Source of the DNA: an uncultured archaeon
Lineage (GTDB): Archaea; Thermoplasmatota; Penumbrarchaeia; JASLWR01
Direction: 5' to 3'
Assembly (NCBI GenBank): GCA_964342815.1
Contig: CAYFHS010000021.1
Location: 1 to 64,000, forward strand
Length of the DNA stretch: 64,000 bases
In this document: positions 6,783 through 62,746 of the stretch, piece after piece
How the letters are laid out: every line of letters begins with the position of its first letter
How positions within the stretch are numbered: position 1 is the first letter of the stretch
Program-made: the position numbers and the translations under genes
Notes under the pieces: model-generated
The model's input: the letters and a program-made list of their open reading frames with translations, nothing else
What the model was told of the DNA's origin: nothing
Database searches by the model: none

Positions 6783-6926
6783 TCGACCGAACCTAAAAAG
6801 TACATCTGCGCAGATAATTGAAATAACGCTCTAACACACGAAAAAATAGCAATCGATATTATTATGGTGAATGCTTATATTAGTATATCGTTAATGTAAC
6901 ATTTGCAAAATAGGCCCCCGCGTGGA

Positions 6927-9900
6927 ATGAAAATGCATGAAAAGATCATAATGCTCATTTCAATAATCTTTTTTATTCAACCCTTTGCCGTTCTCATGGG
7001 CCAGGCGCCCCAAGCGGAAATGGGATTCCACATGGAAGAATTGATAACATGGGAAAACTCTATGGACGGCAACCATATGGCTGAGCCCCGTCATTTTGCG
7101 TATAACGATTCTGACGGAAATCGTATTGACGATTATATCGATGGGCGGCTGAGCCGAGACCCTGAAATGCGTTTAGACGTTTTCGTCAATTATGAACGGC
7201 CTGTGGAAGATATTCATCTCAATGATCTTGGGAAAATTAGTTTGGCCCCCGCTTTCGTATCCAAATACATCAACTCCGTTATACTCGAGGACGTTGGTTC
7301 CCGTGAGATGAACGCCGTTTTGCAGCTCCGTGATGTTTTGGGGGTCGAGAACGCGCCACCGGTCCACCCCATGCTGGATATTTCCACACGGGCTGTAAAG
7401 GCCAGGGAAAGCGACATTTACTCTCCTGTAATCTGGGACGATCTTGGGCTGAGCGGTACCAACGTAAATGTGGCTCTCATCGACAGCGGTGTGGATGATA
7501 TCGTTCACGCCGGGTTAAGAGGCAAGTTTGTGGGGGGTGTGGACACCACCTCGTCATTTGGCTCCATGGAGCGGAATCCCGATGATGGTATCGGCCACGG
7601 CACCCACTGTGCCGGTATCATAATGGGAACCGGCAGTGGGGGAGACAACATAGGCGTTGCCCCCAATGCTTCCCTGGTGGACTGCAGGGTGGGGGATACC
7701 ATTACCCTGGGCTCTGCCACAATGACGAACTTCATGGAAGCTCTGGAGTGGGTAAGGGATAATTCTGTGAAACACAACATTTCAGTGCTGTCCATATCCA
7801 TGGGGACCTCATATTCCTCGGACGGGAAGGATGCATCGTCAAGAATGGCCAACGAAGTGGTGGATGCAGGAGTGACGGTGGTTGTGGCTATCGGGAACGA
7901 TGATAACGGCCGTAACGCCAATGTTGTCTCATCTCCCGGGTCGGCGGACAAGGTTATTACTGTAGGTGCCGTGCACGACCGTAACACGGTCCAAAGAAAT
8001 GATGACATCATAGCCGGATATTCACAGAGAGGTCCGCGTCCCTCGGACGGCGACAATGATGATATGGATGAGTTGAAACCGGATATTACGGCCCCTGGCT
8101 CCGACATAACTTCATGCATGCACAACACCCTCGGATCGTACATTTCTTTCTCCGGAACCTCCATGGCGACCCCACACGTCTCCGGTGTTGCTGCCCTGAT
8201 GAAAGAGGCGTATCCGGCCCTGAAACCGGAACATATCAAGGATATTTTGCACCGATCCGCAGAGAGTAAAGGCGGTGCATCGTACCCAGGCAAGGACGGC
8301 AAATACAATACCAAATACGGGTGGGGTATGCTGGATGCTTACGGGGCGGTGAGGCGGGCCGTGGACATGATCACCCCGGAGATGAATCTCCCCTCTTACG
8401 TGGACAGTGGAAGCAGGCTCAATGTTCGAGCGGTGATGGACCTCGCCAGGACTTCGGCTATGGAGACCTCTGATATGATGGAGTGGAAAATATCGTTCCC
8501 CGCGTACTTTGCAATCCCCAATAATATCAGTGTCAGTACAGGCAACGACGCGGAAACCGTAATAACATGGAATGATCCCTACCAGGAGAATGGTGAATGG
8601 CATCTTGACGTGCAGGTCGAGATATCTGGCGGAGTTGGCGATCTAATCGAGGTTGCTCCGGAAGCAGTATTCTTCACAACGGCGCCTCATGTGGGACAAG
8701 CACAGGAATTCACATTCATTATGAACACCAGTGTGAACGGGATATTTTCACCCGAGAGAACAAGCATCATGACGGTGGGAGATGATGCGGAATACAAACC
8801 GGACCTCACCATTACCCCGAATGACATCACGTTTTCGAATAATCCTGCCACCACAGGCCAGGAGGTCGTGATATTTGCGAATGTTACCAATGCGGGGCTC
8901 AGCGACACCCACGGCGTCACCGTGGAATTTTACGACGGCAATCCGGCGAGCGGAATACTCATCGGCTCCGCCAAGATGGATATTCCCCGGGAAAGCAAAC
9001 GTCAAGCCAGTGCTGAGTGGGTGGCCACCTCGGGAACCGTTCATAATATTTTCGTGACGGTGGACCCCGCAGACGATATCGATGAGATTTCCGAGAACAA
9101 CAATACCGCCTCCAAACCCCTGGCGGTGAGGGGAGGTATCAATCTGGCTCCCACATCCAATCTCACCGTGGAGCCAATTCCGGCTGACGTTGATGAGGAA
9201 GTGTCCTTCGACGGACGCGCCTCCAGCGATCCCGATGGTACTGTTACCCAGTGGAAGTTTTTTTTCGGAGATGGCACCGACAGCGGTTGGTTATCCGTGG
9301 GGTATACGGATTACAATTATCCGGCCCCGGGGAATTATTCTGCCTTTCTCGTGGTGAAAGACAATGGCGGCAGGGAAAGTACCAATAACGACAGCAAGTT
9401 AATTAAGGTAAAGGAACTGGCAGGGGGCAGCATGGGATTGTATCTTTCGGGTGCGAGCAATCTTACGTTGTCAAGGCCCCAGGGTGTCATGGAAAATACC
9501 CTCCCCTGTCCCGATGGTTACACTCCCTTTCCCTTCCCGGGAAGTCCGGTGGGAAGAGTGGAATACCGCGAAATCGGTATCTGGCAGAGCTCCTATCCCA
9601 TTGAAACGAGGGAATTGGTGGAAAGGGACACAATTACATTCTGGATACGAAATACCAATGATGGGCAGGGCTACGATGCTCAGTTCAGGACCGTGGTAAG
9701 GGTCGATGGGGAAATCCTTATGGAAAAGGAGACCGCTGAGATACATGTGGAACCGGGCAGCCCGCCGTTGAAGATCGAAACACACAGCGAAGTATCCGAC
9801 TTCGAATTGAAATATCTCTCTACCTTCGAGATAAGAATGGAGGTCATGGTCAACGGAAACGGGCTCGAACTGGTTTACGGGGTGCAGAAGTACCCTTCGG

Positions 9901-11264
9901 GCTTTACCACAAAATACCTTCCTGTGAAAAACAGTGTACCGGAGATCACGCATGCACCGGACGTACAAGGGTGGGCGGGTGACGAGATCGGATTCATTGT
10001 CAATGCCGAGGACAGTGACGGGAAAATAGTCGCCTACCGCTGGGATGTTGATAATGATCTCCAATGGGATTTGGAGACTGGCGATAATGAGACTTCGTAT
10101 ATTTTCGATGTCCCTGACGAGTACCGTATTAACATTAATGTAGTTGACGATGATGGGACTTCGGCCACAGGTCATTTTACCGCTCTCATCAGTGCAGTGG
10201 GCGAGAGTCTGCCGCCAGAGGTGGCAATAGATTTTCCTGAGAACGGCACCCCCATTTCGGGGGTGACCAGATTCCGGGGACGAGCAAGCGACGATCGCGG
10301 GATCAGTGAAGTCCACGGCCGCATAGATAACGGACCCTTCGAACTTATATCCAGGGATAATACGTGGGTGATGGAGGTGGATGCAGCCGAGCTTAATTTG
10401 GGCGAACACATTTTCTATGTTATGGCAAGGGACTCGGATGGGCAGGAGTCAGCGGTAGAAAGTGTAATATTCTTCGTGGTTTCGACCCGCGCCCCCCCCT
10501 TCATCAAACAGGTTATCCCGTTACCTCAGAAGGTGAATAACAGCGGAAAGGGGCAGTTCCTGCTTACGGTATATGTTGATGATCCGGACGGTTTGGATGA
10601 TATAGAATCCGTAACTATCGACCTCGCCGAAATGGGTATGGGAGAGAAGAAATGCGAAATGGAGAGGCAGGGTGTTTTCGTGCGCTCCGTTACCGTTCCA
10701 TACGGTACTCCCGCGGGATTGAGAAGCATCCATGTGGTGGCGAGGGACGTTTGGGGTCTTGAAAATGAGACCAACGTAACGGTTTCGGTGGTGGAGATGA
10801 ATCATAAACCGCAGATCAGTGACCTGACCGAAGATAAACGAATATCTCTAGGCAAACCGGCTGTATTGAAGATTATGGTCAGGGTCACCGATGAGAATGG
10901 TGAAGGCGATATTTCCTCGGTCACCATCGACCTCAGCCCCATGGGAGTGGATCTCATAAAAGCTCTCAACGACGACGGGGTTTTTGGCGATGAGCTAGAA
11001 GGTGACGGGATCTATACTCTGGAGTTCTCGGTTCCCGAAAACGCTCCCTCGGGAACCAAGAGGTTCGTGGTAACCGCGGAAGACAGGGGCGGCGAGATGG
11101 CCCACGAGGACGTTTCCATTACCTTCAGCAAACCCTCCCCGGACGACTCGGAGGGAGCGGGAGTGACCGAATTCTACGAGGAACCCATAGTTTTTATCGG
11201 CGTTGTCTTGGCAGTCGTTCTTATGATAGTCTATATTTTAACAAGAAAATATAAATCTCATTAA
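6927..11264 (+). CDS. Membrane-anchored S8 (subtilisin-family) serine protease with CARDB, PKD and Ig-like domains
   Basis: Catalytic triad motifs LIDSGVD, GHGTHCAG and SGTSMATPHV. CARDB (PDLTITPNDITFS...VDPADDIDEISENNN), PKD (FDGRASSDPDG...W.FGDG), an LNDDG..GD...GDGIYT motif and a C-terminal TM helix. Confidence 0.92.
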   Translation: MKMHEKIIMLISIIFFIQPFAVLMGQAPQAEMGFHMEELITWENSMDGNHMAEPRHFAYNDSDGNRIDDYIDGRLSRDPEMRLDVFVNYERPVEDIHLNDLGKISLAPAFVSKYINSVILEDVGSREMNAVLQLRDVLGVENAPPVHPMLDISTRAVKARESDIYSPVIWDDLGLSGTNVNVALIDSGVDDIVHAGLRGKFVGGVDTTSSFGSMERNPDDGIGHGTHCAGIIMGTGSGGDNIGVAPNASLVDCRVGDTITLGSATMTNFMEALEWVRDNSVKHNISVLSISMGTSYSSDGKDASSRMANEVVDAGVTVVVAIGNDDNGRNANVVSSPGSADKVITVGAVHDRNTVQRNDDIIAGYSQRGPRPSDGDNDDMDELKPDITAPGSDITSCMHNTLGSYISFSGTSMATPHVSGVAALMKEAYPALKPEHIKDILHRSAESKGGASYPGKDGKYNTKYGWGMLDAYGAVRRAVDMITPEMNLPSYVDSGSRLNVRAVMDLARTSAMETSDMMEWKISFPAYFAIPNNISVSTGNDAETVITWNDPYQENGEWHLDVQVEISGGVGDLIEVAPEAVFFTTAPHVGQAQEFTFIMNTSVNGIFSPERTSIMTVGDDAEYKPDLTITPNDITFSNNPATTGQEVVIFANVTNAGLSDTHGVTVEFYDGNPASGILIGSAKMDIPRESKRQASAEWVATSGTVHNIFVTVDPADDIDEISENNNTASKPLAVRGGINLAPTSNLTVEPIPADVDEEVSFDGRASSDPDGTVTQWKFFFGDGTDSGWLSVGYTDYNYPAPGNYSAFLVVKDNGGRESTNNDSKLIKVKELAGGSMGLYLSGASNLTLSRPQGVMENTLPCPDGYTPFPFPGSPVGRVEYREIGIWQSSYPIETRELVERDTITFWIRNTNDGQGYDAQFRTVVRVDGEILMEKETAEIHVEPGSPPLKIETHSEVSDFELKYLSTFEIRMEVMVNGNGLELVYGVQKYPSGFTTKYLPVKNSVPEITHAPDVQGWAGDEIGFIVNAEDSDGKIVAYRWDVDNDLQWDLETGDNETSYIFDVPDEYRININVVDDDGTSATGHFTALISAVGESLPPEVAIDFPENGTPISGVTRFRGRASDDRGISEVHGRIDNGPFELISRDNTWVMEVDAAELNLGEHIFYVMARDSDGQESAVESVIFFVVSTRAPPFIKQVIPLPQKVNNSGKGQFLLTVYVDDPDGLDDIESVTIDLAEMGMGEKKCEMERQGVFVRSVTVPYGTPAGLRSIHVVARDVWGLENETNVTVSVVEMNHKPQISDLTEDKRISLGKPAVLKIMVRVTDENGEGDISSVTIDLSPMGVDLIKALNDDGVFGDELEGDGIYTLEFSVPENAPSGTKRFVVTAEDRGGEMAHEDVSITFSKPSPDDSEGAGVTEFYEEPIVFIGVVLAVVLMIVYILTRKYKSH

Positions 11265-11583: not shown

Positions 11584-14500
11584 CTATTTTCTATTCGTAT
11601 CCTCTTTCATTTTCCGCCGGATTATTACAATCCAGGTCAGTGCTGCAAGAATAATGCCCACGATAAATACGAGAATCAAGATATCGATCTTTAGAGAACT
11701 TCTCTTCTTATGGTCTTCGTTCTCCTTCCCGTTATCGTTATTCATGTAAGTCTCGTTCACTAGGAACGATAAATCTTTCTGAAAATGCAAACCTGTCAGC
11801 TCTATCTCCGCCGTAACCGTATATGCCCCTGCAAGCCGAGGTATGAAGCTCCAACCTGTTCCGTTTGCCCCTGTTATGTTAAATCCCGGATTTTCCGTAA
11901 ATAATATATGCCATTTCACCCGGGGAACCTCGTCCAGGAATGGAGGTGTGATCAATGAAAAAGAAACACTTTTATTTGTCCTGACGGATTCCGTGGTCGA
12001 TAGTATGATTGACCATGCCGCGTCCCAATCCTCCCATGGGACCGCGGTGATATTACGTTTGAACTTATACCTGAGCCCTTGGGCGGAAAGGACGATCAGG
12101 ATGAGCCGGTAATCCGCTGCTTTAGTGAAATTGAGAAACAGTTCTGGAGTGTGATAGGTGACAGAGTTCTCTTCCAGCATCACGATCCAGGTGTAATTGA
12201 CAGGCGGGTCGTTCCCCCAGGAGAGATTGGCACGGCATTTGACGGTAGTCTTCGTTCCCACTACACTTGTTACCCATATACCGCCCTTCACTGGTTCCGG
12301 AGTGATATTTTCAAGGACATGCATAACTGATTTCAAATTGATGACGGCCGGTGGATCGAGATAAGCACCTCCGTCGGAAAGGTTCAGGTGGATGAGATAG
12401 GTTCCGGGACTGTTGAAACTGGTGAGGAACGTGGGTGACGAGGACCGGGTGAATCCGCATTTCGAAAGCAGATGCTGAAAGCTTGCGTTATAGGGGTCTA
12501 TTTCACCGCTGACATTGAACAGCCACCATTGGTAGAACATTTCGCTCCCTTCGGGGTCCATGGGAGATTCAACCGATATTGTGATTTTCTCTCCCACCAG
12601 AACTGTGCGATTCTCGAGAGGGTCTGCGGAAGGAGGGAGGTTGTTGGGAGCGTCATCAAGTGAAAAAGTGAAGACAGGCGAAGTCACACTGCTTTCATTC
12701 TCATCCTCCATATGCACTTTCCAGTAATATCGTTCCCCCACAGATATGGATCCCTTTGCGACCGGGACTATTAACAGGCCCACGGAAGGTCTGATCTCGT
12801 GGTAGATAGTATTCCACTGCCCCGGGCCGTTAGAGCTGTCTTTTGCAAAATTGACCTTGATATCAAGCAGGTCCCCATCCAGGTCTTCGGGAAGGAAGGA
12901 AAGAACGACGTCAGTTGTGTTCCATGGCAGTAATGAATCGTTTATTGGCTCATGAAGCGTCACAGTGGGTTCAAAATTTATGTCAACGAAGAAGGAAGAA
13001 AATACCGGATGACATGTTCCGTTGTCCACTCCGTCAGCGGGTACGACCCACCAATCGTACCATGTGGCATCTTTCAATTCCACGCTAAATGTATGATTAG
13101 ACCCGAACGTGATCGACGAAGTCATTGCCGGTGTCGCGATCCCACTTGGCTTCCAGAATATCTCGCCGGTTGTGTTGTTTCCGTCATGGTCGTGGATATT
13201 GAACTCCATTGTTGGAGTGAGAGTCCCGAAGCGAGAACCGTTTTCCGTGATGAGCTGTGCCCACGGGGGTCGATTTCCGGCATGACTCACATTGTTCGTC
13301 AGGTATATTTCGCTGTTTTCACCTGTGCTGTTCTCACTCGCAAACACCACCCACAGTCTTCCGTCGGAAGCCGCGAGAGTGGAGGGTGATGCATCATGCT
13401 CCATCTTTGGGGTAAGAAGAAGTTCCCCGCCCCATGTGGAGCCGTTGTCACCGGATACAGTATAGAAGATATCCCCGTTTACTTTGGCATCATCGGTTCG
13501 ATCGCTGGTGTAGAAAAGGTAGAGTTTTCCATCTTGGTCCCCCATTGCCGGTTCCCCGACTCCAAAATTATTACCATCTACCAGCATTACCGGGTCGGTC
13601 CATCCGCCCCAGCTAGGGGAACTGGTGCCCCAGATGCTGCTCTTGCCCCCCGAGACCTGCGACCATATCATCCAAAGAATGCCATTTGCGGTCTGAGTAT
13701 TATAGACGCTTTTTACTGCACTATCATTATCCGAAAGTCGGGTCGGTGTATTGAAGCTCACCCCGTTGTTAACCGAATAACAGAAATATGCTCCACCTAG
13801 CTGCCCATCCGAAGTGAACGCGCACCACAGAGTTCCGTATCGGGTGCGGAAAACCCGGGGGGAGCTCAGGTTGCTGCCCGGGAGATGGCTGCTCAATTCT
13901 TTCTCCACTTCCCATGTCGTACCCCCGTCCGTGGATATTTGATAGTAGATCCGGCTCTTTCCTCCCTGATCCCTAACATAGGCAAGGAACCACGTGCCGT
14001 CCTTCGTTTGGGTGAAGGTAGGAGAGCTCGAGGTGCCACTGCCGGTAGAAAGTTTTTTCTTCTTTTCCCAGGAAATCCCGCCGTCAGGGCTGCACTTGTA
14101 TGATATTAGCGATCCATTTACCGTCTTCTCTTCCCACACGAGGCAGATCTGCCCACCGGCCAACTCGGCGAGATGGGGATTTCCACTTTCGTTTTCTCCA
14201 TGGGTCACCTGGGCGAGATCGTGAACCGTACCTGGTAGTTCAAGGTCCGGTCTAGCTAGATTATAATAGTCGAATATTCCGAAAAGCATCCCTCTGGCCG
14301 CTGCTTTCTTGAAACTCTCCTGGTGAAGTAGAAGATTATCATCATAATTATCGTGAAATGCCACTTCCACGAGACTGGCCGGCATATCGGTTTCCCGCAG
14401 GACACAAAGTGAAAATCCCGACATGTCCTCGTCCTTCCACACTCCCCTGTCTAACGTTGCGCACTGGTCAACCACTGGTGGATGGAGCTTGTCCGCAAGA

Positions 14501-15081
14501 GCTTTGTCATTGGCGGGGGAGCCGCCGCCGGTTCCCGCATCCTGGCCTCCCCACAAGGTCATGGTGCCTCTTGCCGAACCGCCGCCCGCATTGGTGTGGA
14601 TCGAGATGAAGATGTCACCGGCAACAAGGTTTGCGTAATCGGGCCGAATGTTCAGGTCCTGGTTTTTGGAACCCATTCCGCCGTATCCCATTGCTGAACG
14701 TAGATAACACCAGGCGCCTTCCTGCCATTTCGGCTGTCCAGAAATACCGTTTCCGGCATTTTTGTCCAGTTCTCTCGTGACATATATGTCAGCGCCGGTT
14801 TCATCTCCTAGGTAGCTTTTCAGGTATGAAGCAATTTCAATGGTCAGCTCATCCTCGACTATGCCCCAGCAGTAAGGGCGTTGGTATTTCCAGTTACCGT
14901 TGTCATAGTACAGCCCGTGTCCGGGATCTATCACTATCTTCTTTCCCGCCAGCGGAAGGGCCCGATCGGAGCTAGACGGGACGGGGTCACAGGTTTCCGG
15001 ATAGATAATGGGTAAACCTGACAGTACCAAAAACATGACCAGCACCGCTGAAATGAGAAATCGAAAATACGACGAACCCAT
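11584..15081 (-). CDS. Membrane-anchored N-acetylmuramoyl-L-alanine amidase (Amidase_3) fused to an Asp-box/BNR propeller and Ig/PKD-like domains
   Basis: KIVIDPGHG, E in IVEDELT, FISIHTNA and PASLVEVAF supply the Zn ligands and catalytic Glu. Four Asp boxes (SPDGGISW, STDGGTTW, SVNNGVSF, SGDNGSTW), an N-terminal signal and a C-terminal TM helix. Confidence 0.88.
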   Translation of the reverse strand: MGSSYFRFLISAVLVMFLVLSGLPIIYPETCDPVPSSSDRALPLAGKKIVIDPGHGLYYDNGNWKYQRPYCWGIVEDELTIEIASYLKSYLGDETGADIYVTRELDKNAGNGISGQPKWQEGAWCYLRSAMGYGGMGSKNQDLNIRPDYANLVAGDIFISIHTNAGGGSARGTMTLWGGQDAGTGGGSPANDKALADKLHPPVVDQCATLDRGVWKDEDMSGFSLCVLRETDMPASLVEVAFHDNYDDNLLLHQESFKKAAARGMLFGIFDYYNLARPDLELPGTVHDLAQVTHGENESGNPHLAELAGGQICLVWEEKTVNGSLISYKCSPDGGISWEKKKKLSTGSGTSSSPTFTQTKDGTWFLAYVRDQGGKSRIYYQISTDGGTTWEVEKELSSHLPGSNLSSPRVFRTRYGTLWCAFTSDGQLGGAYFCYSVNNGVSFNTPTRLSDNDSAVKSVYNTQTANGILWMIWSQVSGGKSSIWGTSSPSWGGWTDPVMLVDGNNFGVGEPAMGDQDGKLYLFYTSDRTDDAKVNGDIFYTVSGDNGSTWGGELLLTPKMEHDASPSTLAASDGRLWVVFASENSTGENSEIYLTNNVSHAGNRPPWAQLITENGSRFGTLTPTMEFNIHDHDGNNTTGEIFWKPSGIATPAMTSSITFGSNHTFSVELKDATWYDWWVVPADGVDNGTCHPVFSSFFVDINFEPTVTLHEPINDSLLPWNTTDVVLSFLPEDLDGDLLDIKVNFAKDSSNGPGQWNTIYHEIRPSVGLLIVPVAKGSISVGERYYWKVHMEDENESSVTSPVFTFSLDDAPNNLPPSADPLENRTVLVGEKITISVESPMDPEGSEMFYQWWLFNVSGEIDPYNASFQHLLSKCGFTRSSSPTFLTSFNSPGTYLIHLNLSDGGAYLDPPAVINLKSVMHVLENITPEPVKGGIWVTSVVGTKTTVKCRANLSWGNDPPVNYTWIVMLEENSVTYHTPELFLNFTKAADYRLILIVLSAQGLRYKFKRNITAVPWEDWDAAWSIILSTTESVRTNKSVSFSLITPPFLDEVPRVKWHILFTENPGFNITGANGTGWSFIPRLAGAYTVTAEIELTGLHFQKDLSFLVNETYMNNDNGKENEDHKKRSSLKIDILILVFIVGIILAALTWIVIIRRKMKEDTNRK

Positions 15082-15238
15082 AAACCTGAGAAAGGATTCT
15101 ATCTTATAAAAAATAAACGAAAAGAAAAAAAACGTTAAATCAATTGTACCGCTCGCTTATGAAAACACGGAGGGTCAAAGATTGGACGATGCGGTAGTGT
15201 GTGGCAATTGGGTCCATTTGTTCATAAAAAAAATCCTT

Positions 15239-16699
15239 ATGACCATTGTGATATCCCTATTCCTTATTACAACAACGAATGTCTCCGGCCAAAGCAATAG
15301 CGATTGTTCCACCTGCCATTCGTTCCCGGATCCCAGCGACGGATATGTTTATGATCCTCCTGTCATTTTTATCAATGTACCCTTTTTCGTCGATCTCCAT
15401 GAGGATTTTACAATTGAAGCAGGGCTCGATTTTAACGAATATGAGATAAAGGAAATAACTTTGACCATCGCGCAAGATCAGCCCATATTAGATTTTGAAA
15501 AAACAACTATCAAAGCAAATGATTTGGATGAAAGGACTACCTTTGATTTCAAGGCCACCACCCTTAAATTGGGTGTAACAAAATTATCCATCACGGCGGA
15601 GGTCATGGTCTACTTTGACCACGCGGCCGGGGAGGAAGATGACTACAGGGAGGAGTCCATTGTAAAATATGCTCTCGTATCGGTAGGGCCCACATATCTC
15701 GAGCCGTCTTCATGGAGTATTTTATTGGGCGAAAAGGGAGAAATAATAACCCTGACTGCCATCGAAGATATTACCGATTTAAAGATAATCCCGCCATCTT
15801 CTCTTACTGCCTCGCCCACAGAAACAAATATATTGAACAAGGGCGGTGCGCTTTCCGTTAAATTGAGCCCCGTAAACGATGAAAAGATCGATGATAATAT
15901 AATTGTTACCTGGAAGCAGGAGGGCACACCTTACGCTTTGACCATAGGGGTCGTATATAATCCGGAAACGGAAGGGGGGACCGACTACCATTCCTGGGTC
16001 GGAAGAATTACGGGAATCGCCTGTATAATCTTGCTGATATTATCTTTGATACTAGGGGGTATGTGGAATACGAAGGGTTTGTTGAACCGAATCATCAAAT
16101 CCTCCACCAGGATCAAGATCCACTGCGCCGTTTCCTGGTTCCTGTTCGCTCTGGCCCTTTATCACGGACTCAATCTGTTGATATCCCCCTATTCTCAAAA
16201 ATTATGGAATCCGTGGATAGTCCTGGGAGAGATCGGGGCTCTGTCAATGTTAGTGGTAGGTCTAACTGGCAGCTACATGAAGTTCACGATAAAGTTGATG
16301 GGTGCCAGGAAATGGAGGGGATTTCACCTCTATGCCACCTTTGCCGCCCTGGTATTGAGTTCGATTCACGGTATTCGCATTGGAACCGATCTCGCATTCA
16401 TAAGGGATAATATGATATTGAGTAGAATCATAATTATTTTATTGGCGATGGGGGTGGTCCTGTCCATCGTTCTATATATTGCCTCGGGAAAGAAAAGCAA
16501 GAAGAAAACTGCAGCTGACCGTGATACCCAGCATACCAAAAAGTCAGACTTAAATAAGAAAAATTCACAGGAGGATTATAATTGGAATACAAGGGGCAGC
16601 CGTGATTATTATATGGACGATTATTATGATAATGCGGAAAAAAATCATAAAAAAGGTCAGCCTGACTATTACGGTGATGATCACCGGGAAGATTATTGA
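15239..16699 (+). CDS. Exported CxxCH domain plus ferric-reductase-like/cytochrome b transmembrane domain
   Basis: Signal peptide, then CSTCH (15305-15319). Four C-terminal TM helices carry paired His (KIHCAVSW...LYHG; GFHLYA...SIHG), followed by a Tyr/Asp-rich tail. Start placed at ATG 15239; the ORF is open from 15182. Confidence 0.65.
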   Translation: MTIVISLFLITTTNVSGQSNSDCSTCHSFPDPSDGYVYDPPVIFINVPFFVDLHEDFTIEAGLDFNEYEIKEITLTIAQDQPILDFEKTTIKANDLDERTTFDFKATTLKLGVTKLSITAEVMVYFDHAAGEEDDYREESIVKYALVSVGPTYLEPSSWSILLGEKGEIITLTAIEDITDLKIIPPSSLTASPTETNILNKGGALSVKLSPVNDEKIDDNIIVTWKQEGTPYALTIGVVYNPETEGGTDYHSWVGRITGIACIILLILSLILGGMWNTKGLLNRIIKSSTRIKIHCAVSWFLFALALYHGLNLLISPYSQKLWNPWIVLGEIGALSMLVVGLTGSYMKFTIKLMGARKWRGFHLYATFAALVLSSIHGIRIGTDLAFIRDNMILSRIIIILLAMGVVLSIVLYIASGKKSKKKTAADRDTQHTKKSDLNKKNSQEDYNWNTRGSRDYYMDDYYDNAEKNHKKGQPDYYGDDHREDY

Positions 16700-23817: not shown

Positions 23818-24498
23818 TCAATCACCTATTTTTTGTTTTATGAACTCGATTGATTCACGAAGATTCTCGTTTTCGACCTTGGTTAAAAGCAGATAGATAT
23901 ACAGAAAGGTGAATGCAACCGTGGCAACGGCAAGTGAAATTCCCATGGAAGCCCTAAGGCTCCCCTCTGACGAGGCGATAACCGTTGGATGGGATTGTTT
24001 CCATATCCGGTTGGCGGCGAAACTCATGGGAATGGATAAGAATCCGATAATCCCGAATACGGCACTGAGGTTTGCCTTCTGTGTTCTTGAATGGACGTTT
24101 GCCCTAAGCGCAAGATAGGCTATAAATATCAACCAGAGGACCAGGGTCATAAATAATTTGATGTCCTCCCATCTCCAGTAAACCCCCCACACGGCCTTGC
24201 CCCACAAGGGGCCCGTGGTTATGGCAATGGTGCAGAAAACAACACCAAGTTCGGCTGAACCGAATGCGTACTTGTCCCATTTCATATCTTTCGTCTTGAG
24301 ATATATCAATCCCGCAACAAAGGTAACGGCGAAGGCAAGATAGGAGATCCATGCGGAGGCTACATGAAAATAAAATATCCTCTGGACATCGCCCATTGTT
24401 TCATGTGGAGGAGCATAGACAAATGCCATGTAAATTGCTACTAACGTAAGAACAATTGCAATCAGCAATATAGGCAATTTTAACTTATTTATATTCAT
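23818..24498 (-). CDS. ccmC: Heme exporter/cytochrome c biogenesis protein CcmC
   Basis: IFYFHVASAW, WWD loop WGKAVWGVYWRWE and a second His in KQSHP. Confidence 0.95.
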   Translation of the reverse strand: MNINKLKLPILLIAIVLTLVAIYMAFVYAPPHETMGDVQRIFYFHVASAWISYLAFAVTFVAGLIYLKTKDMKWDKYAFGSAELGVVFCTIAITTGPLWGKAVWGVYWRWEDIKLFMTLVLWLIFIAYLALRANVHSRTQKANLSAVFGIIGFLSIPMSFAANRIWKQSHPTVIASSEGSLRASMGISLAVATVAFTFLYIYLLLTKVENENLRESIEFIKQKIGD

Positions 24499-24499
24499 A

Positions 24500-25183
24500 T
24501 CACGCCTCTAAAATATAATCCGCTAACAGGTAACCCATGGCGATAAAGACAACGTCAAACGCTAATATAAACTTTATCTCGTTAGCTACGTCGGAAATAT
24601 TTCCACCGGAAAATATCTGGGCCGTACCCGTAACGGCCGACATGACTATTGTGAAGAGCAGGATGGGGACCAGAAGTACGGGGAGCATCACTGCACTGTA
24701 TGCGACCTTTGAGGATATTGCGGAAATCAAGTTTCCCATTGCGGCAAATCCCACGGTTCCCAGAACGATCAGCGTCAGAAGCGCCGGAATATCCGGAGTA
24801 TCCACGGGAAAGAAGGCGAAGAACAGTACAAGTGAAAACATTTCGAGAATGAACATTACCAGCAGGTTTGCCAGGAATTTTCCAAAAAATATGGAGGAGG
24901 GTGAAATAGGGGCCAGCAGAAGTCCGTCCAGTGTTCCTTCGTCTATCTCCCTTCGATATGTAAGTGAAAGGGTGAACATACCGGAAAAGAAGAAAGTGAT
25001 CCAGATCACGGGAGCTGCGATACTGTTCAGAGACATTTCTAGCATGGAGAAGGCGAATCTGAACGACGCAATTATCATCACGGATAGGATGAATGAAGTA
25101 ACGATCATCTGTTTGTTTCGGAACTCCACTTTCAGTTCCTTCAGAAAGATCGCCTTAACAACACTCAGGCAGACTCCCCCCAT
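24500..25183 (-). CDS. ccmB: Heme exporter permease CcmB
   Basis: KELKVEFR, EIDEGTLDGLLLAP, IFFGK and six TM helices, located between ccmA and ccmC. Confidence 0.93.
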   Translation of the reverse strand: MGGVCLSVVKAIFLKELKVEFRNKQMIVTSFILSVMIIASFRFAFSMLEMSLNSIAAPVIWITFFFSGMFTLSLTYRREIDEGTLDGLLLAPISPSSIFFGKFLANLLVMFILEMFSLVLFFAFFPVDTPDIPALLTLIVLGTVGFAAMGNLISAISSKVAYSAVMLPVLLVPILLFTIVMSAVTGTAQIFSGGNISDVANEIKFILAFDVVFIAMGYLLADYILEA

Positions 25184-25878
25184 ATTATTTCATTTAATTT
25201 ATCCGAGAATTCCGATTTGCTGATTCCTTCCGCTTCATATACTATCCGACCGTTTGAAAGGATTGCGCCTCTGTTAGCAATCTCGAAACCCTTGTGGATG
25301 TTGTGGGTGATGAAAACGAAGGTCTTCCCCTTTTTATTCAATCGAAGAATCAGTTCGTTCAGTATATTTTGTGCCTTGATATCCAGGCCCGAGTATGCCT
25401 CGTCGAGAAATATGAGGTCGGGATCATGAAGCAGGGTCCTCGCGAGAGCCAACCTCTGTTTCATGCCTCTGGAGAAAGAGCCCATCCTGTCATAGGCCCT
25501 ATGAAGCAGTCCGGTCTCCTGGAGAAGAACTTTGATCCTTGAGCTTCTGTTCTTGACCGAGTAGAGATAGGCAAAGAAATCCAGGTTCTCCCACGCCGAA
25601 AGCTCAGGGTACAGGTATGGATCGTGGGACATGAAACCGATTTTGGACTTCAGTTCCTTCGAGCCTCCATCGGTATTCTTCCCGAACAGGGTTATTTCTC
25701 CTGAATCGGGAGACATCAGGGTTGATAATATTCTCACGAGAGTGGTCTTGCCTGCGCCGTTGGATCCAAATAGGATATATCTATCACCCTTTTCTATGGT
25801 GAGATCCAGCCCCTTAAGGACCTGCAAACGTCCGAATGATTTTTCAATTCCCTTGGCTACTAATACCGGCTTAGCCAT
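25165..25878 (-). CDS. ccmA: ABC ATPase CcmA
   Basis: Walker A GSNGAGKT, signature FSRGMKQR and Walker B LIFLDE, upstream of ccmB. Confidence 0.92.
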   Translation of the reverse strand: MAKPVLVAKGIEKSFGRLQVLKGLDLTIEKGDRYILFGSNGAGKTTLVRILSTLMSPDSGEITLFGKNTDGGSKELKSKIGFMSHDPYLYPELSAWENLDFFAYLYSVKNRSSRIKVLLQETGLLHRAYDRMGSFSRGMKQRLALARTLLHDPDLIFLDEAYSGLDIKAQNILNELILRLNKKGKTFVFITHNIHKGFEIANRGAILSNGRIVYEAEGISKSEFSDKLNEIIWGESA

Positions 25879-26057: not shown

Positions 26058-28805
26058 TTAATCATACTCCCAATCGTCATCATTCTGATAATCACCATGT
26101 TCCCAATCGCCATCATTCTGATAATCACCGTGTTCCCAATCGTCATCACCGTAATACGCATCATCGTAATCATCTTCATCGAATTCCTCATCATAATAAT
26201 CCTCATCAAAGTAATCGAATTCTTCACCTCTTTCGTCTTGCGCATGGGCTTTATTTGATAAGTCGCGACGTCTGGGATGCGGGGCGTATCGTTGATTTCT
26301 TTCTCTTTCCCTTTCTTCAAAATATTTTCGCTCCGATTTTGACAGGTTTAGTTTTTCCCCCTTCACTTTCCCCTTTCTTTTCTTTTTGTAAAAGAACCCA
26401 AGATATGCGCCTATTATCCCCAAAAATACTATACCGCCAAATAAGATAAAATCTTTAATAAAATCGGGAAATCTTGCACTTTTGGTGATTTTTTTGTCAT
26501 CCTTTGTATCCTCCTCTTCAGAGACCAAAATGTTCCAGCTTATGTTTTTCGACAATCCCGAATCTTCATTGGTTATCTTCAATCTAACAAAATGATCACC
26601 CGACCCCAGGATCGGATAGGTCAGCGTGGATATTCCGGTGGCATAACTCTCGTTGTCCACGTACCAAATGTATGACGAATTACCCTCGCTTTCCACATAC
26701 AGAACAGCAACCTCGTTTTCTTTTACATGCACATTTCCATCTTCGGGATAGGAGAAGCTTATTATTGGAAATTCGGGCTCAACGGGATCTTCTTTAAGCT
26801 GAAGGATCATGCTCACATTATTGCTGTGAGGACTCTCGCCGACAATATTCGTCGCAGTAACATAATAATAATATGTACCTTTGAAGACAGTTGGATCCCG
26901 ATAGATGGTCATAATGGAATTGACCTTTGCGACCCTCACCTCAGTCCCCGGGGACGAACCCCGATAGATGTTATATTCTAAAATTGGATAGCCGCCGTCA
27001 TCTTCAGGTATTTCCCAGGAAATATCCACGTAACCTTTACCCAGTGTCGCACTAAGATTGAGTGGGGAGGTTGGGACACTTTGGGGGACGATCTTTACAA
27101 TTAGGCTCGAGTCCCCTTCCCACAAGGAATTGACTGCGGTTACGGCGTAATAATAAATGACGCCGTTTCTAACCGAAGTGTCATTATACATAAGAGTGGT
27201 GGGATCAGCCGAACTAAGATTGATCAGATCATCCGAGCTGTTCCCCCTGTAAATGTTATATGAGGTCAAATTCAATCCACCGTCATTCCCTGTTTCATCC
27301 CAGGTCAGATTAACATATCCGTTGCCGGCTTCTGCTCGAATCATTCCGGGAGGTTCCGGAGGTCCCCGGGGGTTTTCAACAATTATATTACTGGGTTCGG
27401 ACTCCCCTAGTGGATTTAGAGCAGTTACAAAAAAATAATAGCTTATACCGTTTATAACAGTGGTATCGTTGTGCGAGATAGTGAACCCTATTTCCGAATC
27501 AAAATACGTTTCATTACCGGGACTGGTTCCTCTGTAGATCTTGTATCCCATTAAAACGGAGCCGCCATCGTCCTCCGGCGCTTCCCAGGATAGCTCCACA
27601 AAACCATTTCCCGTGTTCGCTTCAAGGTTTTGGGGTGGGGATGGTGTTGTAACATCTCTCATTGGTGTTGTTGCAACTCCTATGCTCGGTTCGGACTCGC
27701 CCAGCGAATTTACCGCAGTAACTATATGATAATAAGTGATCCCATTGGTTAGACCGGTATCGTTGTATGAGGTATTATCGGGGCTGGCAGAATCGAAATA
27801 GACCTCGCCCCCGTACTCGGTTCCTCTGAATATCCTGTATTCGGTTATGGCCAATCCTCCGTCATGGTCCGGTGCTTCCCAGGATAGCTGGACATAACGA
27901 TCACCCCCTTCCCCCACTAGGTTTCTTGGCAATTTCGGACGCCCCAGCGGTAATTCGGATACCTCGTTACTGGAATTTGACTCCCCCACGGTATTGATGG
28001 CAGTCACATAATAGTAGTAATTCACACCGTTCATAACAGTTGTATCATTGTATGAGAATGAAGTCCCGCTTACACTATCATATAGTATCTCTCCACCCGA
28101 GCTGGTTCCCCTGTAGATGGAATATTCAGTTATGGAAGCGTTCCCGTCGCTGGCCGAAGCTTCCCAAGATAGCTGAACAAAGCCATCGCCGGAACTGGAA
28201 ATCAGATTTTGAGGCGGTGTGGCTATGAACTGAGGCAGTGTGACTGAAATGAAATAAGAATACTGATCTCTGACCCAAAGGTTTAGATTATTATTGGGCG
28301 ACTGCTTCGAGTGAGCATTGAAAGCGTAAAGGTCGAATGTCAAGGTGTCCGCACCGGTACTATTTCCCGTGACCGACCACTGGAATGTTTCAGTATACGG
28401 GGGGAGCAGGTCGTATCTTTCCTGTGAGGGGTTCTGGATTATCACTTTCCCGTTAGAACTGGTCAGGTTAACTATTAACAGGTCTATGGTGTACCAGTGA
28501 TTTATATGCCCTCCCCCTCCATCTAAGTTGATTACCATTTTCACAATATTTGTTTCATTCAATTCAAAGGTGGTTGGCAGGACCGAAGAAGTATCTGTGG
28601 GCGTTAGATTGGTGTACTCGTAATATCGATTCCCGTGGCATCCAAGACACATGTCTACGGATGCCCTGTTCGAATCTCCCAGTATCGCAAGATCGATAGC
28701 GAGCAATGCGATCAATATCCCGCATATAACCACTATGGGTGGAGCAGCTCTTAAGCCTTTTTCTCTCCGGACTCCATGACCCGATAGACTGACTTTCATT
28801 TTCAA
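26058..28805 (-). CDS. Surface protein: N-terminal CxxCH, five fibronectin type III repeats, C-terminal TM and acidic repeat tail
   Basis: CLGCH at 28635-28649. Five repeats of P..P.NL....G.G.V.LSW..P..DGG....Y.IYRG, then a TM helix followed by KKKRKGK. Confidence 0.85.
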   Translation of the reverse strand: MKMKVSLSGHGVRREKGLRAAPPIVVICGILIALLAIDLAILGDSNRASVDMCLGCHGNRYYEYTNLTPTDTSSVLPTTFELNETNIVKMVINLDGGGGHINHWYTIDLLIVNLTSSNGKVIIQNPSQERYDLLPPYTETFQWSVTGNSTGADTLTFDLYAFNAHSKQSPNNNLNLWVRDQYSYFISVTLPQFIATPPQNLISSSGDGFVQLSWEASASDGNASITEYSIYRGTSSGGEILYDSVSGTSFSYNDTTVMNGVNYYYYVTAINTVGESNSSNEVSELPLGRPKLPRNLVGEGGDRYVQLSWEAPDHDGGLAITEYRIFRGTEYGGEVYFDSASPDNTSYNDTGLTNGITYYHIVTAVNSLGESEPSIGVATTPMRDVTTPSPPQNLEANTGNGFVELSWEAPEDDGGSVLMGYKIYRGTSPGNETYFDSEIGFTISHNDTTVINGISYYFFVTALNPLGESEPSNIIVENPRGPPEPPGMIRAEAGNGYVNLTWDETGNDGGLNLTSYNIYRGNSSDDLINLSSADPTTLMYNDTSVRNGVIYYYAVTAVNSLWEGDSSLIVKIVPQSVPTSPLNLSATLGKGYVDISWEIPEDDGGYPILEYNIYRGSSPGTEVRVAKVNSIMTIYRDPTVFKGTYYYYVTATNIVGESPHSNNVSMILQLKEDPVEPEFPIISFSYPEDGNVHVKENEVAVLYVESEGNSSYIWYVDNESYATGISTLTYPILGSGDHFVRLKITNEDSGLSKNISWNILVSEEEDTKDDKKITKSARFPDFIKDFILFGGIVFLGIIGAYLGFFYKKKRKGKVKGEKLNLSKSERKYFEERERERNQRYAPHPRRRDLSNKAHAQDERGEEFDYFDEDYYDEEFDEDDYDDAYYGDDDWEHGDYQNDGDWEHGDYQNDDDWEYD
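26068..26150. repeat. 33-nt tandem repeat (about 2.5 copies) encoding DWEHGDYQND(G/D)
   Basis: tcccaatcg(t/c)catcattctgataatcacc(a/g)tgt at 26068-26100 and 26101-26133, with a partial third copy from 26134. Confidence 0.9.
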
Positions 28806-31948: not shown

Positions 31949-34648
31949 TCAACTCCTAAATCTTTTCAATTCTTCTTCCAACATCTTTTCATAATCATTT
32001 TCAATCTCCGTCCCAATCGCCTTTTCGATGGGGATCTCGCTTCTTTTCTTAAGAGGCCTCGTGAAAGGTTTCCGCGCATGTTTCTTTTTTGTGGGGAAAT
32101 AATCCACCAGGGTTCTGATGGTTATGCCAAGTACAAATAATATCATACCAGCCCAGAGTGCGTTCATACCGGGAATGGTCTTAGCTGTGACGCGGACCTC
32201 GTTGTCCCTGATTCCATTGAAACTGACATAGAGATCCTCCTTGAACATTTGATTTACATAAATGGCGGATTTCGTAAGACCTGTAAATCGGTGTTTTCCA
32301 TGAACATTAAAATAGTCTCCCATATCTTCGATAATAAAGCTTCTGTCGTCATCCTCCAATATTACAAATTTGTTTATTTGTTTTGTCTCAAATTCTTTTT
32401 TCGCCGCACTGTATACGCGTTTAAAGTGCGGCCCCATTCCAGTTGATATTTTCGCCTCATCACTTAATTGGACTCCGTTTTTCTCAAATTCATTACGAAT
32501 TATGGAATCAACCGGGCCAGCTTTCAAGCTCTCCCGATAACCCGATGATAGACGTAATAACCATTCCCGAATATCATATTTTCCATTGCGACTGTAAATC
32601 ATACCCATTTTGCCTTCTTCGATGAAATCATTCTCTTCATAAACTTCAATACTTACATCCCAGGTATCCCAGTATTCGTTGGATTCCTTATCGCCGGTAT
32701 CTTCAGTTATATCGATCGACGTAAGTTTGAGTCTATAAGAATCGATGATGATCGTGTCTTTAAATACAGTTATTCCTCCCATGGAAACCTCAAGTCGGTA
32801 CTCTACGGCACCGTCAATTATTTTCCACGTATTTTCATCGAGGGGTATGATTTTTGGGTTTGGTGATGATAATGGTACATCATATGCTTCAAAGGCTTCG
32901 GAAAGTTTTTCCGCTACAGGTCCTTCCGTTAAATAACTGCTATAACTCACAGATAAGGTGAATAAGGCACCTGTCTTAACCCAGTCGTTCGTCTCTATTG
33001 TCATTGTTTGACTGACCCCGTAACCGATGAATAATAATCCCACTCCAAGATGAATGAGATGCGGACTGGTTGTTTTCAACGTGTTTTTAAGGGAACGAAA
33101 ATTGACAAGTTTTATTATTTTATAAATTGAGGCGAAAATTGCTAGAAGGCAAAAAGGGATCAGAAACCCAATTACGTGATGCGTGGATATGAAATCGAAG
33201 TAGAACATTTCCGCCTTGCCCGGGAATAGGTATTTGGGGAGGAACAATGCACACACAATTCCTCCCAAGAAGGTCCATCCAATGATGTACATGGTATTTT
33301 CTTTTCCAAAATACCTCCAGCATAGACAAACTCCCATGGTGATCAACAAAAGAATAAGAAAGGGAGCATATCGGGTCTCGTAAAACCTCTGGTCTATCTT
33401 CCCCATGGTAAAGACCAAGCCGATTATCGTAACGATGGTAAGGATAGCAAAAAGCAATATTGTCGCTTGCATGCTCAGGGAATCCCATCTATTCTTGTAA
33501 TTCGTCTTGGGTTCATCGAGGACTTCAGTGCGATCTCTTGTGAAAATAGACATAATGATGATTATGGCGCTCACGATCAGAGTGGTTATCATGGCCGCGA
33601 TGAGAATCCACCCAATCTTGGTTTCGGACCAGGCGTGAACGGATTCCCACATGCCGCTTCTAGTAATAAATGTGGCGAATATGACCAATAAAAATGTAAT
33701 GGCTCCTAGGATCGGCGTTATGAAAACATATTCCTTTTTTCGTTTATTCATCAATTGAGTATGCAGAAAAGCAGAGAGCGTTATCCACGGAACGAGAGAT
33801 CCGACTTCCACGGGATCCCATGCCCAGTATCCGCCCCATCCCAGGGCCACGTAGGCCCAGCCTGCACCCACACAAATACCCAGTGTCAGGAACAACCAGG
33901 CAAGCCTGCTCCATTGCAAGGAGACGTTTGTCCATTTTTTATCCCCGGTGATGGAGTAAGAAAGACTTGATGCAAAGGGAATTGTGATGAAAGCGTATCC
34001 AATGAATAGCAGTGGCGGATGGATCACCATCCAGAGATTACGAAGCATTGGATTTCCGCCGAGCCCTCCGGGGTTGAGAACTCGCGGGTCTGTTGGTATT
34101 ACCGTTCCGTCAGCTTTAGTAATGTCTATAAAATGATTGGTTATTGCATCGAACGGATCTTTGACTACGAGGAGAATTAAGAATACTAGGATGACCCCGA
34201 GGACAATGGTTCTTGTAAAATCATAGGTTCTATCGACCGTCTCTGTGTTGTTTTCGTCATCAGTGTCATTCGAATCCAGAAGGAACGGTCTGTTTTTTCT
34301 GTTTTTTAAATGCTGGATCAGTTCCTGGACTCCAAGGGGGATTGTAATGAGCCATACCCATAGAAGAAATGATCCCTCCTGTCCGGCCCAAGTCCCGGAA
34401 ATCTTGAGATACCAGGGAAAGTTCTTTGCTGTGTTGTTCCAAACATAAAATATGTCGAAATTCGTTGTAATGAAGTAATATACGAGCAAAAAGTATGCCA
34501 GGCTTATCGTGGCCACAACTCCGATGGCTGCGATAATGGCAAATTGTCGATAATTTCGGTCCCTGGTAAAATGGTGAATTATCGACGTTAAGAACGCACC
34601 GCCGCAAAGAAACAACGATGCCCATAATAGAAACGTTCCAGGATTCAT
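31949..34648 (-). CDS. ccmF: Cytochrome c synthetase CcmF with enlarged C-terminal external loop
   Basis: WAGQEGSFLLW, HPPLLFIGYA, WWD loop WAYVALGWGGYWAWDPVE, and further His in AFLHT, SVHAW and LIHLG. Start placed at ATG 34648; the ORF is open from 34729. Confidence 0.95.
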   Translation of the reverse strand: MNPGTFLLWASLFLCGGAFLTSIIHHFTRDRNYRQFAIIAAIGVVATISLAYFLLVYYFITTNFDIFYVWNNTAKNFPWYLKISGTWAGQEGSFLLWVWLITIPLGVQELIQHLKNRKNRPFLLDSNDTDDENNTETVDRTYDFTRTIVLGVILVFLILLVVKDPFDAITNHFIDITKADGTVIPTDPRVLNPGGLGGNPMLRNLWMVIHPPLLFIGYAFITIPFASSLSYSITGDKKWTNVSLQWSRLAWLFLTLGICVGAGWAYVALGWGGYWAWDPVEVGSLVPWITLSAFLHTQLMNKRKKEYVFITPILGAITFLLVIFATFITRSGMWESVHAWSETKIGWILIAAMITTLIVSAIIIIMSIFTRDRTEVLDEPKTNYKNRWDSLSMQATILLFAILTIVTIIGLVFTMGKIDQRFYETRYAPFLILLLITMGVCLCWRYFGKENTMYIIGWTFLGGIVCALFLPKYLFPGKAEMFYFDFISTHHVIGFLIPFCLLAIFASIYKIIKLVNFRSLKNTLKTTSPHLIHLGVGLLFIGYGVSQTMTIETNDWVKTGALFTLSVSYSSYLTEGPVAEKLSEAFEAYDVPLSSPNPKIIPLDENTWKIIDGAVEYRLEVSMGGITVFKDTIIIDSYRLKLTSIDITEDTGDKESNEYWDTWDVSIEVYEENDFIEEGKMGMIYSRNGKYDIREWLLRLSSGYRESLKAGPVDSIIRNEFEKNGVQLSDEAKISTGMGPHFKRVYSAAKKEFETKQINKFVILEDDDRSFIIEDMGDYFNVHGKHRFTGLTKSAIYVNQMFKEDLYVSFNGIRDNEVRVTAKTIPGMNALWAGMILFVLGITIRTLVDYFPTKKKHARKPFTRPLKKRSEIPIEKAIGTEIENDYEKMLEEELKRFRS

Positions 34649-34730
34649 TTTTACACCGATCAAATCACAGTATTCAGGGATCAACACGTGAAAATCTTTT
34701 TCTATTTTATCCACAACAACAGTCTTCAAA

Positions 34731-49557: not shown

Positions 49558-49568
49558 GACAGATCCTC

Positions 49569-50264: not shown

Positions 50265-50276
50265 TCTCGAACCCCT

Positions 50277-51896: not shown

Positions 51897-51897
51897 A

Positions 51898-62740: not shown

Positions 62741-62746
62741 CTTCCT

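Follow-up and report, generated by a model that had tools for sequence, protein, structure and literature searches.

The stretch analysed here, referred to as the window, comprises positions 1 to 64,000 of a 69.8-kb contig (C21, CAYFHS010000021.1) from an uncultured Thermoplasmatota archaeon (GCA_964342815.1), and one of its genes encodes the protein P0001. By homology and predicted fold, the head of P0001 is an intact zinc amidase of the N-acetylmuramoyl-L-alanine (MurNAc-L-Ala) type. It lies behind a hydrophobic N-terminus and is followed by a BNR β-propeller, a stalk rich in glycosylation sequons, a transmembrane (TM) helix and a basic tail. Our favoured reading, to which we give a probability of about 0.5, is that P0001 is a surface-tethered amidase which acts on bacterial peptidoglycan and has a mainly nutritional role among other surface depolymerases. 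In the sea, peptidoglycan forms a large reservoir of organic nitrogen, and P0001 is a conserved, single-copy and intact candidate from an abundant uncultured marine archaeal lineage. Which organisms degrade peptidoglycan, and whether archaea feed on bacteria or fight them, is a question raised by Strock et al. (PLoS Biol 2025, PMC12352652).

A zinc amidase head on a predicted surface glycoprotein

In a Pfam scan of P0001 at E ≤ 0.1, solely Amidase_3, BNR_2, GH43, BNR_4 and BNR were matched. The Amidase_3 match had an E value of 8.5e-24 and a score of 85 bits (cut-off, 27 bits), covered positions 1–172 of the 174-position profile and recurred in 10 of 10 family members; the NCBIfam amidase models were all below threshold on P0001, with CwlD (56.5 bits) at the top. 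Of the 42 Amidase_3 domains that we aligned, one is that of P0001, 28 are bacterial and the others come from Thermoplasmatota genomes (5 long-type, 8 canonical); only ten columns were invariant. As shown in Table 1, these include the three zinc ligands and the catalytic glutamate, in agreement with the complete active site (H, E, H and catalytic E) reported in the preliminary description of this DNA. The ligands H55, E76 and H162 are also invariant in 10 of 10 orthologues, and E239 aligns with the conserved glutamate of CwlV and of the Clostridioides difficile amidase 4rn7.

The AlphaFold model of residues 36–290 (predicted local distance difference test score, pLDDT, 91.0; predicted template modelling score, pTM, 0.90) fits the Amidase_3 fold, a twisted six-stranded sheet flanked by helices. 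When the model was compared with the PDB using VIA-align, the top 24 entries were all MurNAc-L-Ala amidases (Z 18.4–25.0; root mean square deviation, rmsd, 1.4–3.3 Å), and the entry after those fell to Z 10.3. Foldseek placed 4rn7 and CwlV (1jwq) first, with a target TM of 0.86 and an E value of 1.9e-15. The domains of 4rn7, CwlV and Nostoc AmiC2 (5emi) superpose with Z 23.9–24.9 and an rmsd of 1.5–2.0 Å over 176–181 residues and have the same H/E/H zinc site and catalytic glutamate. They differ from P0001 in that they are 23–29% identical to it, do not have its three insertions (about 50 residues in total) and act on the producer's own wall during autolysis, sporulation or septum remodelling.

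Membrane-held Amidase_3 enzymes have precedents in CwlD and in LytH of Staphylococcus aureus (7tj4), which match the model with Z 23.2–23.8. LytH, however, has an N-terminal TM tether and an SH3 domain and needs ActH, whereas P0001 has a C-terminal anchor, a propeller and a stalk, and no partner gene is evident for it. The two proteins also differ at the second position after the last zinc-binding histidine (His+2), where a metal-binding Asp is described for the activator-dependent LytH, AmiB and AmiC and a flipped-out Asn for many other amidases (PMC9245657). P0001 does not have the Asp of the activator-dependent LytH and AmiA/B/C but carries Asn164 (H162-T163-N164), invariant in 10 of 10 orthologues, which suggests that its amidase is probably of the activator-independent type.

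Relative to canonical domains, the alignment places the insertions of P0001 at about residues 57–70, 105–140 and 176–190, so that the domain extends over about 221 residues, compared with 174 profile positions. AmiB and AmiC have an autoinhibitory helix over the active site; in P0001, the residues that are extra between H162 and E239 were modelled as a low-confidence Gly-rich coil (model residues 147–151). When 1.84 billion representatives were searched exhaustively with HMMER, 5,434 matches were obtained at E ≤ 1e-3, 553 at E ≤ 1e-10 and 29 at E ≤ 1e-30. The best matches beyond the protein's own family were P0024 (1,977 residues) and P0025, which is identical to a 1,865-residue protein of the same-class genome G008, and then P0026, whose NCBI label is 'N-acetylmuramoyl-L-alanine amidase, partial [Thermoplasmata archaeon]'. 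All 28 further representatives that we scanned carry the long Amidase_3. Its fusion partners include PG_binding_1, S11 DD-carboxypeptidase, GerMN, S8, PA14, ricin, Kelch, F5/8C, PQQ, CARDB and PKD; the wall-related ones among them support a peptidoglycan substrate for the long subtype, and the many lectin-like ones would also be compatible with other targets.

A quick maximum-likelihood tree of 101 rows, in which 79 of 85 candidate proteins were kept and the six without a single alignment of more than 180 residues were left out, separated canonical from long domains (support of 99 in the Shimodaira–Hasegawa-like approximate likelihood ratio test, SH-aLRT). All long domains of the Thermoplasmatota fell into one clade with moderate support (86–89), which consists of 13 family rows, a domain from G005 and the group of P0026, P0025 and G008. 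The surface proteins of the same class (the 1,865-residue protein of G008, that of G005, and P0024/P0011) share this tree group as well as an N-terminal long-type amidase with BNR_2 and Ig-like modules downstream. Unlike P0001, they add a second, canonical Amidase_3, Big_7, an F5/8C lectin, and GH18 or GHL10, so that P0001, with one amidase and a propeller, represents a pared-down form. In the same phylum we also noted a 1,290-residue protein (L105; G312:C81:3937-7809, reverse strand) with three PKD and three PPC modules, Peptidase_M23, SH3_3 and a canonical Amidase_3, which would be a classical two-enzyme wall hydrolase; judging from the many overlapping open reading frames (ORFs) at its locus, the contig may be rich in GC.

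Outside the archaeal relatives, the named homologues listed were distant. A word-indexed search returned mostly AMIN-Amidase_3 proteins of Selenomonadaceae with 31–35% identity, the named matches listed from a species-level genome collection were, apart from one archaeal record discussed below, canonical bacterial amidases with 22–33% identity, and the best named bacterial homologues among all matches listed were 22–35% identical. Among phage proteins, matches were obtained with the endolysin families phrog_435 and phrog_2742. A phage origin was considered and rejected, as the best phage endolysins, those of Bacillus phages, are 29–31% identical and no nearer than the bacterial enzymes, and no phage genes lie beside the locus.

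The divergence of the long subtype bears on an alternative that we regard as improbable, namely that the protein has another job, either on a non-murein amide substrate such as a glycopeptide or a marine organic polymer, or mainly as a wall or glycan adhesin with secondary catalysis. With its three insertions, the domain scores 85 bits compared with 170–200 for canonical archaeal Amidase_3 copies, and the subtype is mostly fused to modules of lectin-like or propeller type (PA14, ricin, Kelch, F5/8C) instead of classical wall-binding domains; some members nevertheless carry PG_binding_1, S11 DD-carboxypeptidase or GerMN. Giant adhesin-like proteins with the same stalk are numerous in the genome, in which, as described below, no muropeptide catabolism was found, and both observations would suit such a role. 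It is difficult to reconcile with four catalytic residues that are invariant under strong constraint and with a set of structural neighbours that above Z 18 contains MurNAc-L-Ala amidases only.

The BNR_2 match (residues 292–509) had an E value of 2.6e-15 and 57 bits (cut-off, 31.4), with weak GH43, BNR_4 and BNR matches beyond. Asp-box motifs are located at residues 331, 383 and 543 and a degenerate one (SVNNGVSF) at 436, so that the four Asp-boxes counted previously are correct as three canonical and one degenerate. A propeller profile built from eight sequences matched PDB sialidases (best E 3.4e-12), mostly through the Asp-box blades alone. NanA was covered by profile positions 88–311 (E 1.3e-6), a PL42 rhamnose-glucuronate lyase was matched weakly, and the language-model neighbours of the propeller were BNR_2 clusters (0.95). 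The catalytic set of GH33 sialidases comprises an Arg triad, a Tyr/Glu nucleophile pair and an acid/base Asp. Among the orthologues of P0001, the invariant propeller residues include R377, R412, R528, Y380, Y415, Y460, D527, D531 and D537.

The stalk is probably composed of PKD/Ig-like modules, as judged from profile matches among its homologues. In P0001 itself the PKD match remained below threshold (22.3 versus 23.5 bits), PKD was matched by 5 of 10 family members and PKD_4 by 4 of 10 (E ≤ 0.001), and the language-model neighbours of the stalk were PKD clusters (0.87–0.89), which we take as a lead only. The Ig/PKD-like domains of the preliminary description are therefore supported less firmly than the other modules. 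Nine further giant surface proteins encoded in this genome, with PKD, Kelch, FG-GAP or laminin-G modules, match pieces of the stalk, and the amidase thus appears to be carried by a scaffold native to the organism.

A Kyte–Doolittle scan revealed two hydrophobic segments in P0001, at about residues 1–31 and at 1126–1158. The second contains the TM helix that had been described before, and the basic tail behind it would, by the positive-inside rule, place the body of the protein outside the cell as in a type-I membrane protein. N-X-S/T sequons occur 28 times, compared with 10.8 ± 2.9 expected from 1,000 shuffles, and are distributed unevenly, with none in residues 1–290, 8 in 291–620 and 20 in 621–1120. 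Nine homologues have 13–31 sequons each, of which only 0–1 lie within the first 290 residues. This pattern is the one expected of an exported archaeal surface protein with predicted N-glycosylation and an unglycosylated catalytic head. The N-terminal segment (residues ~5–31) has a mean identity of only 0.22 among homologues but has kept its hydrophobicity, and it may be either a signal peptide that is cleaved off or an anchor that is retained. The head would sit at a distal N-terminus, as had been stated, only if this segment is cleaved; otherwise it would lie beside the archaeal membrane, with only soluble fragments within reach.

An archaeal host and inheritance of the gene

The host genome measures 4.35 Mb in 116 contigs (88.9% complete, 3.2% contaminated) and carries an archaeal small-subunit ribosomal RNA gene on another contig, C9 (1512.9 bits). 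The tetranucleotide profile of C21 agrees with the genome mean at a correlation of 0.982. In the species-level genome collection, the best match among those listed was a record labelled 'MAG: Thermoplasmatota archaeon' (L011; MAG, metagenome-assembled genome), whose protein is 74% identical over the full length and whose gene order agrees with that of the window: ArgRS, S8 subtilase, amidase, a 505-residue ORF, Cu-ATPase and a thioredoxin-like protein. Together with orthologues in four of four family genomes, these observations identify the contig as archaeal, which the preliminary description had called apparent.

In line with the earlier premise that archaea lack murein, SEDS and GT51 peptidoglycan polymerases each gave no match in the 88.9%-complete genome, and SEDS was above the cut-off in none of the 37 genomes of the class. 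The only match to penicillin-binding proteins (PBPs) was a transpeptidase fragment on the 1,566-bp contig C111, which has a GC content of 0.517 and a tetranucleotide correlation of 0.40. Both this contig and C78 (2,792 bp), which carries a MurQ gene, probably entered the bin as strays from bacteria. Two weak Mur_ligase_M matches (40 and 33 bits) are uninformative, since the same profile in a control also matched murein-free Methanocaldococcus jannaschii and Haloferax volcanii.

The stray contigs and the contamination estimate raise the possibility of an artefact in which a bacterial gene or contig was misbinned into an archaeal genome. The composition of the amidase gene, which is mildly atypical, points in the same direction and is to be counted against our favoured reading: its GC content is 0.505 compared with 0.454 for the genome, and its tetranucleotide correlation lies at the 6th percentile of random 3.5-kb pieces. 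We nevertheless consider such an artefact extremely improbable in view of the length and composition of C21, the gene order shared with L011, the presence of the protein throughout the family and of the amidase domain in two more families of the class, the Thermoplasmata label of the non-family relative P0026, the low identity of the best named bacterial homologues listed, and an archaeal-type TATA element at −26 relative to the ATG.

Near-identical DNA was present in marine and seawater metagenome runs from eight studies, of which one may be the source of the genome itself. None of the 17 runs listed with near-identical DNA was an RNA run, and among the contigs of four runs (short, with at least 99% identity) none spans the gene plus flanks, so that they add nothing independent to the evidence for linkage. 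Contigs of two runs, X3 and X5, depart from the window at 15100–15132, within the promoter-bearing intergenic stretch that separates the amidase gene from the divergent gene of P0023, which indicates a strain variant in this region.

The family has the gene as a fixed single copy that is passed on vertically and is under strong purifying selection, with the head as the most constrained part according to sequence comparison. Each of the four family genomes contains exactly one Amidase_3 match, and the full-length protein is present in all three other genomes (73%, 47% and 45% identity). All ten full-length homologues from public data combine Amidase_3 with BNR_2, and identity drops with kinship, from 85% in the genus to 75–77% in the family and 46–56% in the class. 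The amidase has a mean pairwise identity of 0.78, with 133 of its 245 columns invariant, and the values for propeller, stalk and anchor are 0.52, 0.39 and 0.23, respectively. The ratios of nonsynonymous to synonymous substitution rates (dN/dS) relative to the same-genus orthologue, which are rough at a dS of ~0.8–1.1, were 0.10, 0.155 and 0.24 for amidase, propeller and stalk, respectively. On a wider scale, 14 of the 401 genomes sampled from the phylum, in 11 of its 162 sampled genera, have Amidase_3, as do 6 of 37 genomes within the class.

The gene lies between ArgRS/S8 subtilase and Cu-ATPase and is syntenic within the genus; beyond the genus the neighbours differ, G002 and G003 having only the amidase gene itself in common. 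The stretch from −62 to −17 upstream of the ATG is nearly identical in the same-genus record L011. Together with the spacing of the TATA-box-like element at −29 to −23, this would suit leaderless transcription from a conserved archaeal promoter. In L011 (about 9150–9200) and in a same-genus genome (G001:C109:10536-10862) the orthologue shifts frame near residue 1055, and the TM anchor is found in another frame. The frame is intact in P0002, a 73% identical protein from other data. The frame change may be an assembly error or reflect an anchorless secreted variant.

Possible roles in feeding on or attacking bacteria

Bacterial peptidoglycan is the most likely substrate of P0001 and is well supported as such by homology, namely by the intact Amidase_3 in an archaeal host in which no murein polymerases were found; this target had already been proposed in the preliminary description. 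As the archaeon makes no murein, the amidase would act on peptidoglycan of bacteria outside the cell. In the scheme that we favour, the C-terminal TM helix would anchor the glycoprotein, and the stalk of ~500 residues and the propeller would carry the amidase at the N-terminal end, where it would cut stem peptides off the glycan strands of the bacterial wall. The propeller may hold the glycan, and tethering would keep peptides from wall debris or damaged neighbours near the cell. The amidase would be one of several tethered depolymerases. A 1,453-residue subtilase with S8, CARDB, PKD and Big_7 modules is encoded convergently next to it (6903–11264, forward strand; 76% identical and syntenic in L011), a protein with GH18 and five PKD modules is encoded on contig C13 of the same genome, and in relatives of the class a single surface protein joins Amidase_3 to GH18, an F5/8C lectin and BNR_2. 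Both this context and the inheritance of a fixed, single-copy, constrained and chromosomal gene favour feeding, the latter because the weapons discussed by Strock et al. are patchy and plasmid biased (PMC12352652).

Several results speak against the favoured nutritional role. The MurQ match (366.6 bits) lies on C78, which has a tetranucleotide correlation of −0.005 and is probably stray. MurQ was above the cut-off in none of five relatives, and a search for S66 LD-carboxypeptidase gave no match, so that the organism cannot be credited with a route for taking up or catabolising wall fragments. No recognised peptidoglycan-binding domain was found in P0001 in the Pfam scan. M23 gave no match in the genome of the host, and SLT, NlpC/P60 and Amidase_2 each occur in none of the four family genomes. 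The amidase is therefore the sole wall hydrolase family found, and complete wall digestion is not encoded. In addition, archaeal peptidoglycan hydrolases (PGHs) were shown by Strock et al. to kill living bacteria (PMC12352652).

This killing by secreted archaeal PGHs is the precedent for an alternative that we rate as doubtful, in which the protein is a contact-dependent antibacterial weapon whose stalk-held amidase cuts the walls of touching bacteria for competition or predation. An amidase alone can lyse cells, the domain resembles phage endolysins, the active site is intact and in the Asn164 state, and without a self-substrate no immunity protein would be needed. Against this alternative, the protein has no known wall-binding module, its head would sit at the archaeal membrane and not at a tip if the N-terminal segment stays uncleaved, and no second lytic activity was found in the searches just described. 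A tethered enzyme would also be unable to cross an outer membrane, and most marine planktonic bacteria are Gram-negative. The distribution can be read in two ways. At the phylum scale Amidase_3 is patchy, as would suit a weapon, whereas within the family the gene is fixed, single-copy and vertical with a dN/dS of 0.10 for its head, in contrast to the patchy, plasmid-biased distribution to which Strock et al. tie weapons (PMC12352652). We therefore do not uphold the contact-dependent action suggested in the preliminary description, as a fixed, vertical and constrained gene in a housekeeping context with sister stalked hydrolases fits scavenging at least equally well.

In a more specific version, which we consider unlikely, a free-living Thermoplasmatota archaeon with a large genome would open the bacteria it touches with a constitutively active stalk-held amidase, and the propeller would be a new module that binds the glycan of peptidoglycan or a second, glycan-cutting site. 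If true, P0001 would constitute a tethered bifunctional muralytic organelle and an instance of archaeal predation on bacteria in the ocean. Strock et al. explicitly leave open the choice between scavenging and predation (PMC12352652).

The principle of an archaeal wall hydrolase is not new, the first descriptions dating from 2025. Strock et al. published Woldo/Danwoldo of Halogranum salarium and catalogued 210 homologues, and their set resembles P0001 in combining a bacterial-type wall hydrolase domain with predicted export in a murein-free archaeon; Thermoplasmatota are among the phyla they name as rich in PGH genes, and the catalytic domains they consider (S10 Table) include PF01520, the family of the P0001 head (PMC12352652). 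The enzymes tested in that work, however, are secreted M23 peptidases, whereas P0001 is a predicted membrane-anchored amidase. The survey demands a recognised cell-wall-binding domain, which P0001 does not have, and a significant fraction of the patchy PGH set is located on plasmids, whereas the gene of P0001 is chromosomal and fixed in its family (PMC12352652). The term 'BNR' occurs in none of 12 of the 13 supplementary files, and 'transmembrane' and 'tether' do not occur in the main text. The murein-like lytic transglycosylases of DPANN archaea are likewise large archaeal proteins thought to bind and degrade the bacterial wall, but they are SLT/GH23 enzymes from small symbiotic archaea and not amidases from a 4.35-Mb genome (PMC10936187). 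Literature searches for a Thermoplasmatota amidase with the architecture of P0001 returned nothing specific. We conclude that the architecture, its fixation throughout the family and the long subtype are new. The published figure for archaeal genomes with such enzymes is ~5% (PMC12352652), which is probably an underestimate, since surveys based on domain pairs would miss a tethered propeller architecture that has no canonical wall-binding domain.

Feature coordinates and neighbouring loci

Table 1. Positions in the window of the P0001 gene and its predicted parts
Feature	Position	Strand	Basis
Whole gene of P0001, 1,165 residues, ATG start	11584..15081	−	Single ORF
TTTATAA, TATA-box-like element, −29 to −23 from the ATG	15104..15110	−	
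Residues 1–31, N-terminal hydrophobic segment, signal peptide or signal anchor	14989..15081	−	Kyte–Doolittle scan
Residues 49–269, Amidase_3 catalytic domain	14275..14937	−	Pfam, alignment, model
H55, first zinc ligand (DPGHG)	14917..14919	−	Invariant 42/42
E76, second zinc ligand	14854..14856	−	Invariant 42/42
H162, third zinc ligand (SIHTNA)	14596..14598	−	Invariant 42/42
E239, catalytic glutamate (LVEVAF)	14365..14367	−	Invariant 42/42
Residues ~292–620, BNR/sialidase-superfamily β-propeller	13222..14208	−	Pfam, Asp-box motifs
Residues 621–1125, stalk, probably PKD/Ig-like modules	11707..13221	−	Sequons, profile matches in homologues
Residues 1132–1154, C-terminal TM helix (IDIL...VII)	11620..11688	−	Hydrophobicity scan
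Residues 1155–1165, basic cytoplasmic tail RRKMKEDTNRK	11587..11619	−	Topology inferred

The gene divergent from the amidase gene (15182–16699, forward strand), which is kept beside it in L011, encodes the 505-residue protein P0023. P0023 has a signal-like N-terminus, contains the haem-binding motif CSTCH (CXXCH) and carries a His-rich domain with several TM segments at its C-terminus; it had no Pfam or NCBIfam match. Genes for cytochrome c maturation are found at 23818–25878 and 31949–34729 on the reverse strand (CcmC-like, CcmB, ABC ATPase, CcmF-like). Giant fn3 proteins, one of them encoded beside the cytochrome c maturation genes (26058–28805) and another at 58514–60934, match 'Ig_J_second' of phage tail-tip protein J.

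A cluster at 48235–53097 on the reverse strand encodes, in this order, a phosphodiesterase, a UbiA-like EboC (NF035940, 180.8 bits; cut-off, 250 bits), a xylose-isomerase-like TIM barrel, TatD and a protein of the myo-inositol-1-phosphate synthase family, and we take it to resemble the bacterial/algal ebo operon. At the end of the window (62027–63940, reverse strand), a NarJ-like chaperone is encoded together with an EB_dh haem-b subunit, a pair that suggests a respiratory complex of the dimethyl sulfoxide (DMSO) reductase family.

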